Of a stretch of 64,000 bases of DNA, positions 4,138 to 64,000 are shown one piece after another. A model generated the notes under the pieces. It saw only the letters and a program-made list of their open reading frames with translations, searched no databases and was not told the DNA's origin. The DNA lies in sequence record MZ065353.1; one strand, given 5' to 3'. The stretch comes from Escherichia virus KFS-EC3. The translations under genes were made by a program, and so were the position numbers. The number at the start of each line of letters is the position of its first letter. Position 1 is the stretch's first letter.

Positions 4138-5103
4138 TTATATTGCTCCTAATATTTTACTTTGCGAATTGACAATTCCTGTCATAGTATTAATGTTTGA
4201 AATGCTTCCAGCAGTTCCCCCTAATCTACTAAGTCGTGAAAGCGAATTAGATAATCCAGTAACACCTCCACTATTTCCGAGAACGCTTTGAATGCCATTT
4301 ATAGCAGCAGATTCAAGCCACTCAAGCGCAGCTTGTCTATCAACCGACCCGGCCTGCATGACTCTATACGCAAAAGTAACATCAAATGTAGTTATTTGGT
4401 TATCTCCATCATATGATAACTCAGGAGCGCTCACTGACACTGGAATGCATCCGGTGAACATCACCGCAGTATGAGGTAATCCATTACGAGCATGAAGATT
4501 AACCTGAATATCTGCCTCGACATCTTGCGGCAAAGCACGCAGTCCAGTTACTGGGTCTTGAACAGCGTTAACCCAGTCTTGCATTGCACGATAGTTACAA
4601 GCTTCTGAATCCATTCTAAATGAAATAACCAAAGGGTCTAATTCTCTCCCAGTTATACGAATATTAGGAGAGTTATAATTCCAGTCAGTTTCATAGGATA
4701 ATCTATTCTCTGGCATTTTTACAGAATATATCATCAATCCAGATGAGTTATATGCCATATTAAAGAAGTCAATTAAATATGTACCAACTGTAAATGAGCC
4801 CAATAAACTTTGAACTGTACGTTGACTCATGGCACCAATAAGATATTTACTAACCCCTGATTTTCTTATCAGTTTTTGTGTGCCAGCAGTAATTAGCGTG
4901 GTAATTCCCTGATTAATATCGCCTTGAGACAATCCTAACCAGTCTGAATTTAGACCCAAGTTATTATAAGAAAAGTTGCTAATTGAACTTATCAACGAAG
5001 AGCTTTTAGTTGATGGAGTTGTCGCAAAAACGCAGCTAAACATATTATTACGCTGGAAATCTGCGTTTATTGCTTGATTATTAAATTCCTCTAAAGAATA
5101 CAT
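4138..5103 (-). CDS. 54: gp54 baseplate tail-tube initiator
   Basis: 321 aa; position and length match T4 gp54; start overlaps the gp48 stop. Confidence 0.85.
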   Translation of the reverse strand: MYSLEEFNNQAINADFQRNNMFSCVFATTPSTKSSSLISSISNFSYNNLGLNSDWLGLSQGDINQGITTLITAGTQKLIRKSGVSKYLIGAMSQRTVQSLLGSFTVGTYLIDFFNMAYNSSGLMIYSVKMPENRLSYETDWNYNSPNIRITGRELDPLVISFRMDSEACNYRAMQDWVNAVQDPVTGLRALPQDVEADIQVNLHARNGLPHTAVMFTGCIPVSVSAPELSYDGDNQITTFDVTFAYRVMQAGSVDRQAALEWLESAAINGIQSVLGNSGGVTGLSNSLSRLSRLGGTAGSISNINTMTGIVNSQSKILGAI

Positions 5104-28618: not shown

Positions 28619-31759
<3,141 letters not shown>

Positions 31760-60729: not shown

Positions 60730-61210
60730 TTTTAAAAACTCGCTGGTATGATTTAGATGACGGGGATGATGGCATTTCAGTTGATAGAGTTGACTGGAAT
60801 GGCTGTTCCGAAGATATGAAAAATTTGCTGATTAGGGAGTTTAGAATGGGATATCAACCAGTTAAGCCATCTACTGCAACAGATGATAAATTCGTGTGTA
60901 TTCATAATGGTCGCGCTAAATTAACGAACGCTGATTGGTTCACAGATAAGATTATGATTCTGTGGTATATTATTAGTTTTCCTGTGACATCATTTGTATT
61001 TTGCTTCTTTGGAGAAAGTCCAGTAGGCAGAACGGAAGATTGGATTCTTTTAATTATACTTGTTAATATTTTTACAGCAGCAGTACTATCAGGAATATGG
61101 TGCGTGTTCATTGAAATGCCATGGCGGCTACGCAGACAACAAAAGATTTTTGATGAAAAGAAATACGCTCAAAATTTAAATAACTTTATCACTGAATGCA
61201 GGAAATTAAA

Positions 61211-61214
<4 letters not shown>
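60726..61214 (+). CDS. small membrane protein (162 aa), tandem family member
   Basis: The track start at 60711 is a TTG; the ATG at 60726 sits in an ATGA overlap. Hydrophobic segments; C-terminal FITECRKLK. Confidence 0.5.
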
Positions 61215-62183
<969 letters not shown>

Positions 62184-62187
62184 AGCT

Positions 62188-62217
62188 GTTTACTTTCTAC
62201 TAGAATTGTGATAGTAT
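62188..62217 (+). promoter_or_regulatory. early promoter (GTTTAC, 18-nt spacer, TAGTAT)
   Basis: GTTTAC at 62188-62193; TAGTAT at 62212-62217. Confidence 0.5.
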
Positions 62218-62271
62218 ATTCACAGTTGCTTGAAGAGACAAATTACTAATTAAAATATTTAAAGGAAACAT

Positions 62272-62745
62272 ATGAAAACATATCAAGAATTTATCACTGA
62301 AGCAGTTATTAATTCTCAAATTATTGCTGAATCTTTTACTGATCTTTTGAAATTTAAAAAAGGTCAAAAAATTACTGCTGTATTAGATGATGGTACAGAA
62401 GTTGAGATGGATGTACAGGGATATAATTATGCAGTAGATGGAAAACTGTATAATAAATCTCATGCTAAATTTGATTCATTTGACGACTTTGTTAATACAG
62501 TTGAAGATGAAAAAACTCGTCGATCCATTGCAACTGGTGATGCTAAGGTTCTTATGGCGCACGGTCATGAACGTATCCGCGCCAAACAGAATAAAATGGG
62601 CGAAGATAATTTTGCATTAGTTGGTTATCAATCTGGTAAACAAACTTATGGTTATCAGCGTACTGCTACCATGTATAACAAAAATGGTAAAATTGCCTTT
62701 GTAAATAGTAAAGGTTCTATTCAGTACGTTAAATCGTTCAAATAA
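62272..62745 (+). CDS. internal-protein-like protein with capsid targeting sequence (157 aa; ipII/ipIII position)
   Basis: MKTYQEFITE|AVINSQIIAE|S gives two (L/I)xE sites; adjacent to e, as the T4 ipII/ipIII genes are. Confidence 0.65.
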   Translation: MKTYQEFITEAVINSQIIAESFTDLLKFKKGQKITAVLDDGTEVEMDVQGYNYAVDGKLYNKSHAKFDSFDDFVNTVEDEKTRRSIATGDAKVLMAHGHERIRAKQNKMGEDNFALVGYQSGKQTYGYQRTATMYNKNGKIAFVNSKGSIQYVKSFK

Positions 62746-62823
62746 TATGGGAACAGCCTGGACCTCATTTGAGGTATTCCCGCCAACCTGTGATAAGGTC
62801 GAGCCAAAGCGCGGTAATGGGTA

Positions 62824-63420
62824 ATGCAGGAATGGACAACTCATGTGCCATGGAATGGCCCAAAAATTAAGAGAGAAAATATGAGAACATTTTTAACTGG
62901 CCCGTATCTATCCCTGATGAATGCTTTTACACACCATTCTGATGCTAGAGTAGAAGAACTCTGTAAGAATGATTATCTTCCACCAATGGAAGATGTGCTC
63001 AAACAGTACTGCACACTTCGACTAGATGGTGGACGTCAATCTGGTAAATCAACTGCTGTGACTAACTTTGCTGCTAATTGGCTGTATGACGGTGGAACAG
63101 TTATTGTTCTTTCTAATACTTCAGCTTACGCTAAAATTTCTGCAGGCCACATTAAAAAAGAATTTTCTCGTTATTCTAGTGATGATATTCGATTCCGCTT
63201 ATTTACTGATTCTGTCCGTAGTTTTATCGGTAATAAAGGAAGCAAGTTCAGAGGTTTATCGCTTTCTCGAATTTTGTATATAATTGATGAGCCTGTTAAA
63301 TCTCCTGATATGGATAAGATTTATAGCGTCCATATTGACACTGTACACTACTGCTGTAATAGTAAATGTTGCATTGGTGGTATTACTCGTCCGCAGTTTT
63401 TCGTAATCGGAATGCAATGA
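62824..63420 (+). CDS. hypothetical P-loop NTPase (Walker A GGRQSGKST, Walker B-like LYIIDEP), 198 aa
   Basis: Motifs read from the translation; start uncertain (alternative Met at 62881). Confidence 0.5.
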   Translation: MQEWTTHVPWNGPKIKRENMRTFLTGPYLSLMNAFTHHSDARVEELCKNDYLPPMEDVLKQYCTLRLDGGRQSGKSTAVTNFAANWLYDGGTVIVLSNTSAYAKISAGHIKKEFSRYSSDDIRFRLFTDSVRSFIGNKGSKFRGLSLSRILYIIDEPVKSPDMDKIYSVHIDTVHYCCNSKCCIGGITRPQFFVIGMQ

Positions 63421-63746
63421 TGACAGACACACAGCTTTTCGAATATCTTTATTTTTCGCCAAAAACTATTAAAAATAAATTGGTGAATCATTTTGAAATT
63501 TTGGCAAATAACAACGTCTTGAGCGAATTTTATCCTAAGCAATACAAATTACAAAAAGGTGTATTCAAAGGATGCAGAGTTTTGTGTACTGCTCCTAATG
63601 CAAGATTAATGAATAAAATTCCATATTTTACCATGGAATTTATTGATGGACCTTTTAAAGGACTAATCACCCAAAGTTTAATGGCATATGATTCTGAGCC
63701 ATTTTTAATTAAAGAACAGTCTTGGATAAATTTATTTTCTAATTGA
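63417..63746 (+). CDS. hypothetical protein (109 aa)
   Basis: ATG at 63417 overlaps the upstream stop (ATGA); the track ORF at 63366 is extended upstream. Confidence 0.45.
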   Translation: MMTDTQLFEYLYFSPKTIKNKLVNHFEILANNNVLSEFYPKQYKLQKGVFKGCRVLCTAPNARLMNKIPYFTMEFIDGPFKGLITQSLMAYDSEPFLIKEQSWINLFSN

Positions 63747-63752
63747 GGTTAT

Positions 63753-64000
63753 ATGAAAGCATATCAAATTCTTGAAGGCACACATAAAGGTACTATTTAT
63801 TTTGAAGATGGTATTCAAGCACGAATTATTGTTTCTAAAACCTTTAAAGAGGACTCTTTTGTAGACCCAGAAATTTTCTACGGTTTGCATGCCCGTGAAA
63901 TTGAAATTGAACCACAGCCTACAGTTAAAATTGAAGGTGGTCAACACCTGAACGTTAACGTTCTACGTCGTGAAACTCTGGAAGATGCAGTTAGGCAGCC
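63753..64000 (+). CDS. hypothetical protein, 3'-truncated by the window end
   Basis: ATG at 63753 with GAGG ribosome-binding site; open to the end of the window ([20 protein letters not shown]...). Confidence 0.4.

Follow-up and report, generated by a model that had tools for sequence, protein, structure and literature searches.

Vs.8 of Escherichia virus KFS-EC3, an early P-loop protein resembling the terminase ATPase, and the conserved spacer ahead of its gene

The end of the 64,000-nucleotide stretch of Escherichia virus KFS-EC3 DNA that we analysed (record MZ065353.1; referred to here as the window) raises the question of what a small P-loop protein does beside the lysozyme gene e and an internal-protein (ip) gene. 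The original prediction, made from the letters of the DNA, had flagged an open reading frame (ORF) of 198 codons there as an uncharacterised P-loop nucleoside triphosphatase (NTPase), followed by two coupled ORFs, and had proposed a variable early function for it. We show by sequence comparison that the three ORFs are orthologues of T4 vs.8, vs.7 and vs.6, which open the conserved gene run from vs.8 to vs.3 and regB. Sequence profiles and a predicted structure further show Vs.8 as a single-domain P-loop protein of the additional strand, catalytic glutamate (ASCE) class that matches the ATPase core of the large terminase subunit, gp17. The spacer directly ahead of vs.8 likely holds a functional structured RNA, as judged from its pattern of conservation.

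Identity and setting of vs.8, vs.7 and vs.6

The end of the window represents the early region of a T4-like phage (Tequatrovirus) and is read from the + strand (Table 1). The identity of the flagged ORF as vs.8 is essentially certain: its product aligns with T4 Vs.8 (NP_049732.1, T4p119) over 179 residues, and the neighbours vs.7 and vs.6, the upstream spacer and the orientation are alike in both phages. The Vs.6 fragment, 96% identical to T4 Vs.6, matches TIGR04365 (GrcA, E=1.8e-15) as well as the Pfam family Gly_radical. The same three ORFs are annotated as vs.8, vs.7 and vs.6 in Escherichia phage KIT03, and a 2.4-kb stretch of the locus was matched by megablast in 828 phage records, mostly at an identity of at least 90-95%. 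T4 has the gene order e, ipIII, ipII, denV, vs.8, vs.7, vs.6, vs.5, vs.4, vs.3, regB, and the order e ... vs.8-vs.7-vs.6 of the window agrees with T4 and KIT03. The flagged genes are already known and stand in their usual place, and no new gene is added here.

Table 1. Features at the end of the window; positions count from the first letter of the 64,000-nucleotide stretch
Feature	Position	Strand	Remarks
nudE	61196-61651	+	
Lysozyme gene e	61689-62183	+	
Ip4-like internal-protein gene	62272-62745	+	Pfam DUF7412, E=1.5e-95
Non-coding spacer, conserved, 135 nt	62746-62880	+	Candidate structured RNA or leader
Core three-way junction, 52 nt	62776-62827	+	Covariance model R1, 61.5 bits, E=2.9e-17
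Core closing stem	A62785-U62818, C62784-G62820, C62783-G62821, G62782-U62822	+	G62819 bulged
Core hairpin	ACCU 62786-89 / AGGU 62796-99	+	
Core mini-hairpin	GC 62803-04 / GC 62811-12	+	
3' hairpin GCCAU-GGA-AUGGC	62847-62859	+	22 nt ahead of vs.8 start
Purine-rich Shine-Dalgarno sequence GAGAG	62871-62875		Ahead of ATG 62881
vs.8 orthologue	62881-63420	+	179 aa plus stop; 94% identity to T4 Vs.8; PHROG 1488
Walker A, DGGRQSGKS	63025-63051	+	Residues 49-57
Walker B and catalytic Glu, ILYIIDEP	63271-63294	+	Residues 131-138
ATGA overlap, vs.8 stop and vs.7 start	63417-63420		
vs.7 orthologue	63417-63746	+	109 aa; 98% identity to T4 Vs.7; PHROG 2049, E=3e-54
vs.6 orthologue (GrcA-like autonomous glycyl-radical cofactor)	63753-64000	+	First 82 codons only, cut by window end

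Gene neighbourhoods were counted in 35 T4-like loci from IMG/VR, which we recovered with a profile of the Vs.8 family. In every one of them a shuffled block with the genes e, ipII, ipIII, ip4 and denV has vs.8 at its downstream edge. It is followed by vs.7 in 27 loci, vs.6 comes next in only about a dozen, and vs.4 and regB then follow in most. By tblastn, Vs.8 was matched in 1009 phage records, and 40 sampled matches all come from T4-sized genomes (~160-172 kb) except for one 100-kb record. The gene had been thought out of place beside e and ip, where denV was expected, and possibly variable in function. T4 vs.8, however, sits directly after denV, and it is the upstream ip/denV block that varies. 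In this block (e to vs.8, ~2 kb upstream of vs.8; loci L020-L054) denV, ipII, ipIII and ip4-like genes differ in order and number.

Where T4 carries denV upstream of vs.8, the KFS-EC3 window has the Ip4-like (DUF7412) gene, and denV gave no tblastn match anywhere in the 64 kb. The loss or relocation of denV, and not a novel gene, explains the earlier surprise at the gene order. We give next to no credence to the reading that a lineage-variable early gene has substituted for denV beside e and ip: denV is indeed absent between e/ip and the flagged ORF, but the position of T4 vs.8 after denV, its constancy in 35 of 35 loci and the sheer number of records with vs.8 refute such a replacement.

The start of vs.8 was originally placed at 62824. 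The likelier start is ATG 62881, because the conserved N-terminus of the protein, MRTFLTGPYLSLMNAF, begins there (family consensus M-R/K-T/Y-F/L-L-T..Y-L-S/T-L-M-N/H-A-F), because a Shine-Dalgarno (SD) sequence precedes it, because 19 of the 35 related loci have an in-frame stop 0-4 codons upstream of the corresponding ATG, and because a 1-nt indel and longer ones between T4 and the window break the upstream frame. Owing to such indels, the N-terminal extensions that gene callers have added (giving 198 residues here and 219 in T4) lack conservation at the protein level. RefSeq gives T4 vs.8 (4254-4913 of locus L003 from NC_000866, minus strand) an extra 40 N-terminal residues within the 219, and these cross the conserved spacer, whereas a T4-style extension is closed or frame-shifted in the window and in most relatives. 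The 179-residue form is likely the product of T4 vs.8, too, and the corrected start matters for expression constructs, since the T4 RefSeq entry is 40 residues longer.

The ATGA overlap noticed in the original prediction exists, but it joins the P-loop ORF to vs.7 and not the second ORF to the third. Abutting coordinates of vs.8 and vs.7 indicate the same overlap in at least 15 of the 27 loci with vs.7, and this arrangement suggests that the two genes are likely translationally coupled. The start of vs.6 lies 6 nt past vs.7, after TGAGGTTATATG, and is served by its own SD sequence, GAGG. The conserved coupled pair of vs.8 and vs.7 is one of three additions made by our analysis, the other two being the corrected start and the invariant counterparts of gp17 residues in Vs.8.

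Vs.8 and the ATPase core of the large terminase subunit

The flagged ORF 62824..63420 (198 aa) is present and, as predicted, encodes Walker A and Walker B-like motifs. These motifs are not a product of chance, because they are kept in 21 relatives down to 40% identity. Across the alignment of these 21 family members, Walker A with its terminase-type Arg-Gln is invariant from D49 to K56, while the Walker B stretch (consensus ILYIIDEP), R113, R124-G125 and the C-terminal F-F-V-I-G-x-Q are invariant or nearly so. Vs.8 keeps the counterparts of the P-loop Arg, Lys and Ser/Thr and of the Walker B Asp-Glu of gp17. The protein belongs to PHROG 1488, a family of unknown function (E=2.2e-78; ORF residues 22-198 against positions 2-177 of the 177 in the profile), and has no Pfam or NCBIfam family. 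The original prediction was right to describe it as a P-loop NTPase without an assigned biochemical function.

A relationship to terminase emerges from several comparisons. The profile of the large terminase subunit, PHROG 2, matches Vs.8 with E=1e-5. The gp17 of the window itself (28625-30454, minus strand), which scores 193 bits with Pfam Terminase_6N (PF03237), aligns in hhalign with the Vs.8 family over gp17 residues 160-275 and Vs.8 residues 50-156 (E=0.0025), and this alignment pairs GGRQSGKS with LSRQLGKT, xRG with VRG and ILYIIDEP with MIYIDEC. Vs.8 is thus like T4 gp17 in its ASCE P-loop, in the Walker A Arg-Gln (GGRQSGKS versus SRQLGKT), in xRG and in the hhhhDE motif. It differs in being only ~180 residues long, without a C-motif (TTT in gp17), subdomain II or nuclease domain, in staying below the Pfam cut-off for terminase, and in being made early, while terminase is late. 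A Pfam scan of Vs.8 gave no Terminase_6C match.

The AlphaFold2 (AF2) model of Vs.8 (predicted local distance difference test score, pLDDT, 81.3; predicted TM-score, pTM, 0.83) starts with an N-terminal helical pair, which is followed by a five-stranded P-loop alpha/beta core. Among the structures of the Protein Data Bank (PDB), Foldseek related this model to the first RecA-like domains of superfamily 1 and 2 (SF1/SF2) helicases (SLFN11, DSH9, RecD, RadD) and to packaging ATPases, i.e., P74-26 TerL, the N-domain of phi29 gp16 and T4 gp17 (2o0h, 2o0j). PDB sequence searches with Vs.8 returned sub-threshold matches only (DNA translocase coupling protein, FtsY). The model places the predicted fold in the ASCE/RecA-like class and not in the kinase-GTPase class. 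This bears on the idea that Vs.8 is a small nucleotide or nucleoside kinase-type housekeeping enzyme, for which a length of ~180 residues with a Walker A motif would be typical and which might seem at home a few genes upstream of tk. Given the hhhhDE Walker B motif with its catalytic Glu and the helicase and terminase neighbours in Foldseek, both marks of the ASCE class, we rejected the kinase reading on fold and motif class and regard it as highly improbable; Pfam, NCBIfam and PDB sequence searches gave no kinase match either. A known housekeeping enzyme in conserved synteny was the outcome that the original prediction had set against its own reading. Conserved synteny is what we observed, but no known enzyme was matched.

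In the literature, the likeness to terminase has already been described. When T4 proteins were screened with AlphaFold 3 (AF3) for a fit to the immune sensor EcAvs2, vs.8 was picked out (PMC13601566, Nat Commun, August 2026) and described as an uncharacterised ATPase-like protein, homologous to the ATPase domain of T4 terminase and with conserved Walker A and B motifs. T4 vs.8 showed toxicity upon co-expression with EcAvs2, a sensor of terminase, and the AF3 model places it in the terminase pocket of EcAvs2, together with a bridging ATP, with an interface predicted TM-score (ipTM) of 0.84 (PMC13601566). The label "uncharacterised" from the original prediction therefore holds for the native function, but no longer for the terminase-ATPase likeness and the activation of EcAvs2. 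Our own comparisons, which used sequence profiles and a structure model, are an independent confirmation of the relationship concluded in the 2026 paper. Two other non-terminase activators of Avs2 from the same study, Ksap1 and Ksap2, are likewise small, lineage-restricted proteins with a terminase-ATPase-like structure that are predicted to bind in the Avs2 pocket (PMC13601566). As far as can be told from their published descriptions, by which we set them apart from vs.8, they belong to other phage groups and are likened to terminase by structure only, whereas vs.8 adds sequence homology and Walker motifs.

The Vs.8 family is narrow. An exhaustive profile search found 50 clusters among 1.84 billion representative proteins, nearly all of them stand-alone proteins of 160-185 residues. 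Against predicted viral structures, Foldseek retrieved many uncharacterised proteins of 145-175 residues from large phages of seven host genera (Proteus, Vibrio, Aeromonas, Stenotrophomonas, Dickeya, Pseudomonas and Acinetobacter). The most distant Vs.8-like proteins have His in place of the Walker A Lys (RRSGHSS, RQSGHTT and RQTGHTT; among P0056, P0058 and P0060), and in one further protein (P0055, RQTYKST) a Tyr replaces the Gly before the Walker A Lys. The His forms are also without the Glu after the Walker B Asp and, on these substitutions, may be non-catalytic.

Possible roles of Vs.8 and its partner Vs.7

Vs.8 appears as a scaled-down, early-made version of the terminase ATPase. This ATPase is the molecular pattern to which Avs-type immune sensors of bacteria respond, and Vs.8 has become interesting for that likeness. 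We lean, by a little, towards the reading that Vs.8 is an ATP-binding look-alike of the terminase ATPase that acts, probably with Vs.7, in the interplay between phage and host defence. According to its conserved residues, Vs.8 would bind and probably hydrolyse ATP, via the P-loop residues R52, K56 and S57 together with D136-E137. The protein would probably work with its translationally coupled partner Vs.7, and the look-alike would be produced minutes ahead of the real terminase. Vs.8 could then be an anti-defence or decoy factor which some Avs2 alleles have learned to detect. In this setting, vs.8 would share its gene run with two sponges, Vs.3 (TadIV-1) and Vs.4 (Acb2). Vs.3 is a sponge against type IV Thoeris, and the study that described it expressed Vs.3-Vs.8 from "the promoter of vs.8" (PMC13243611). 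Published T4 omics data put the RNA of vs.8, vs.7, vs.6, vs.4 and vs.3 in the early class; at the protein level vs.8 and vs.7 are early, and vs.6, vs.4 and vs.3 are middle (PMC9697503, supplementary tables). For vs.8 this bears out the early gene that had been predicted. An anti-defence nature of Avs2 activators was also suggested as a possibility by the authors of the EcAvs2 screen, who left the native role of vs.8 open (PMC13601566).

Several observations weigh against this reading, however. On the side of the terminase relationship, Terminase_6N reaches only 14.7 bits on Vs.8 (cut-off 22, E=0.024) and covers only residues 69-119; the hhalign probability is 12%, with a single-sequence template; and the Foldseek matches have E-values of ~2e-4 to 3e-2 and TM-scores of only ~0.4-0.47. 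Vs.8 ends in FFVIGMQ, in which G177 and Q179 are invariant, so that a G-x-Q stands at the very C-terminus in place of the terminase C-motif; for this comparison we used what we take to be the position of the C-motif in gp17. On the side of function, ATP binding and hydrolysis by Vs.8 rest on motif conservation and the published AF3 model, the toxicity of T4 vs.8 with EcAvs2 was measured in co-expression and not in infection (PMC13601566), and setting off Avs2 is detrimental to the phage and does not in itself amount to an anti-defence activity. The proposed anti-defence role is a case of guilt by association. As for the partner, Vs.7 was undetectable in 8 of the 35 IMG/VR loci, and its AF2 model was poor (pLDDT 57, from a 5-sequence alignment) and was left out of the fold search.

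The invariance of the complete set of catalytic residues, together with nearest folds among the first RecA-like domains of SF1/SF2 helicases and the terminase ATPases, would also fit a different role. Vs.8 (with Vs.7) might be a working ATPase that depends on nucleic acid and serves early infection, for example by acting on DNA or RNA of the host or the phage during takeover; its recognition by Avs2 would then follow incidentally from the common fold. Many large phages encode small proteins of a similar kind, and one distant relative adjoins a UvsX/RecA-like gene. Vs.8 has a single RecA-like domain, though, with no second domain and no recognisable nucleic-acid-binding module, and the family is narrow, as described above; we hold such a role to be unlikely, if worth keeping in mind. 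A third possibility starts from the homology of Vs.8 to the gp17 ATPase core and from the early production of Vs.8 ahead of the late terminase. As an early mimic of this core, Vs.8 might occupy gp16 (the small terminase subunit), the portal or other partners of gp17 and thereby time packaging or prevent its premature onset. Vs.8 lacks gp17 subdomain II and the regions beyond gp17 residues ~130-290, and T4 vs.8 is, to our knowledge, not described as essential, both of which count against a packaging modulator and make it rather improbable in our view.

Vs.7 falls into PHROG 2049, of unknown function, and had no match in the Pfam copy that we searched; its database relatives bear a precomputed PF26834 label. 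In many phage records, homologues of vs.8, vs.7, vs.3 and vs.1 are labelled "endoribonuclease (RegB)" (e.g., P0005, P0006 and P0070). No RegB similarity was detected for Vs.8 or Vs.7 in any search made with them, and the labels look as if they had been carried over from the annotation of regB close by. In the distant T4-like phage PP397179.1 (3840-5516 of locus L058), a Vs.8 relative (P0053, E=2e-9) is encoded one gene away from a 217-residue Gly_radical protein, and the gene in between has a faint HNH match. This pairing gives a weak hint of a second association of the two gene types, echoing vs.8-vs.7-vs.6 of T4.

The conserved spacer ahead of vs.8

The spacer between the ip gene and vs.8 has a G+C content of 47%, compared to 36% in the window. 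Aligned between the window, KIT03, teqhal and T4, it shows invariant columns over most of its length, despite the differing upstream gene and the frame-breaking indels. Almost all T4-like loci have the element upstream of vs.8. Its centre is a core (Table 1), the only convincing match of covariance model R1 in the window, and this model finds one or two core copies per T4-like locus. The core consensus, ACCUGURAWAAGGU-CGAGCC-NAAG-YGC-GGUAA, is nearly invariant, and the GGUAA of the junction is conserved, changing to GAUAA in 2 of 30 copies. The start codon at 62824 that had been assumed for vs.8 falls 2 nt past the closing stem of the core.

We read the core structure by hand from 30 distinct copies and then counted its pairs. 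The three central pairs of the closing stem are formed in 30, 30 and 29 of the 30 copies, with 4, 4 and 2 pair types, respectively. The covariation score of 0.331 exceeds that of shuffled alignments (0.092 +/- 0.017; 0/500 as high) and of slid controls (<=0.111). In the core hairpin, A-CCU/AGG-U switches to G-C in 2 of the 30 aligned copies, and the GC..GC of the mini-hairpin occurs elsewhere as GCG/CGC, GCC/GGC, GUC/GAC and GAGAC/GUCUC. A 5' flanking stem varies in a compensatory manner (GGGAA/UUCCC here; AAAGG/CCUUU, AAAGA/UCUUU and AAAGC/GCUU elsewhere). The 3' hairpin GCCAU/AUGGC is found in all loci, is swapped to GGCAU/AUGCC in one relative and is kept even where an ip gene parts it from the core. 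G-U pairs in the core favour the + strand. Folding of the single spacer sequence gave no significant z-score on either strand, and RNAalifold on the raw MAFFT alignment recovered the small hairpin alone. In our view, the spacer element is likely a functional structured RNA.

The distribution of the core reaches beyond T4-like phages. Copies outside this group occur in Vequintavirus, in Pseudomonas phage PsgM04F and in metagenomic relatives of the latter. The motif of the core, AACCTGTRAWAAGGTCGAGCCNAAGCGCGGTAA, is almost unaltered in these non-T4 phages and has a few variable positions in more distant T4-like phages. The non-T4 copies lie in or beside tRNA gene clusters, in the orientation of the tRNAs, and the phages of this tRNA-cluster type are without a Vs.8 homologue, while T4-like copies always stand beside vs.8. 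A particle of Vs.8 and the RNA, in the manner of the phi29 pRNA, was considered; an obligatory pairing of the two is unlikely, because the core is present in Vequintavirus and the Vs.8 matches listed are T4-sized bar one. Two further metagenome matches to the core pattern (L013 and L015), from G+C-rich, unrelated contexts and with low model scores, were put down to chance.

Known RNAs offered no match. None of the 4227 covariance models of Rfam 15 reached E<=10 on a 151-nt stretch, and none fell in the spacer at E<=1 in a search of 1.9 kb. Neither T4 rnaC/rnaD nor any other part of the window resembles the element (blastn-short, and the covariance model with the T4 tRNA region included). We also rejected a host origin of the core, as the element had no match in 5,426 E. 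coli genomes and the core pattern no copy in 185,579 species genomes. Mimicry of the 530 loop of 16S rRNA by the core junction (GCC..AGC.GCGGUAAU) proved to be a chance 9-mer: when aligned locally with the E. coli rrnB operon, shuffled queries scored as high in 127 of 300 cases for the core, in 155 of 300 for the junction and in 248 of 300 for the whole element. The conserved folded RNA ahead of vs.8 thus appears to be undescribed. Whether it represents an undescribed class of phage structured RNA, shared by T4-like phages, Vequintavirus and at least one other group of large phages and acting not just as a spacer or promoter but as a stable or processed small RNA, or as a regulator or anti-defence element at the RNA level, we rate at slightly below even chances; if true, this would be a new phage RNA motif that spans unrelated phage families.

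Directly after the core, ~15 relatives have an early promoter of T4 type (TTTACA-N16/17-TAYWAT, with agreement at 10 or more of 12 positions); none follows it in the window, the T4 group or type-C relatives. In the window the nearest candidate, TTTACT-N17-TAGTAT, agrees at 11 of 12 positions and lies at 62189, ahead of the ip gene. Judged by the sequence, transcripts from a site of this kind would read through the ip gene and then the spacer before reaching vs.8. The same region (62189-62271) contains a MotA-box-like TTGCTT ~35 nt before the ip start codon.

In T4-like phages, promoter-terminator cassettes known as PeSL, composed of a simple stem-loop and an early promoter (TTTACW-N17-TAYWAT in T4/PST-type phages), mediate gene shuffling (PMC2839356, PMC4122927). 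The spacer recalls them in being intergenic, conserved and placed where a region of gene shuffling ends, and in the ~15 relatives mentioned a promoter comes after the fold. Unlike PeSL cassettes, the spacer element forms a three-way junction with a near-invariant core that is common to unrelated phage families. A possible function of the conserved element is that of a joint for recombination. Four loci (L036, L038, L039 and L048) carry an inserted ip gene that parts the core from the 3' hairpin, and three others (L029, L040 and L051) have two cores in tandem.

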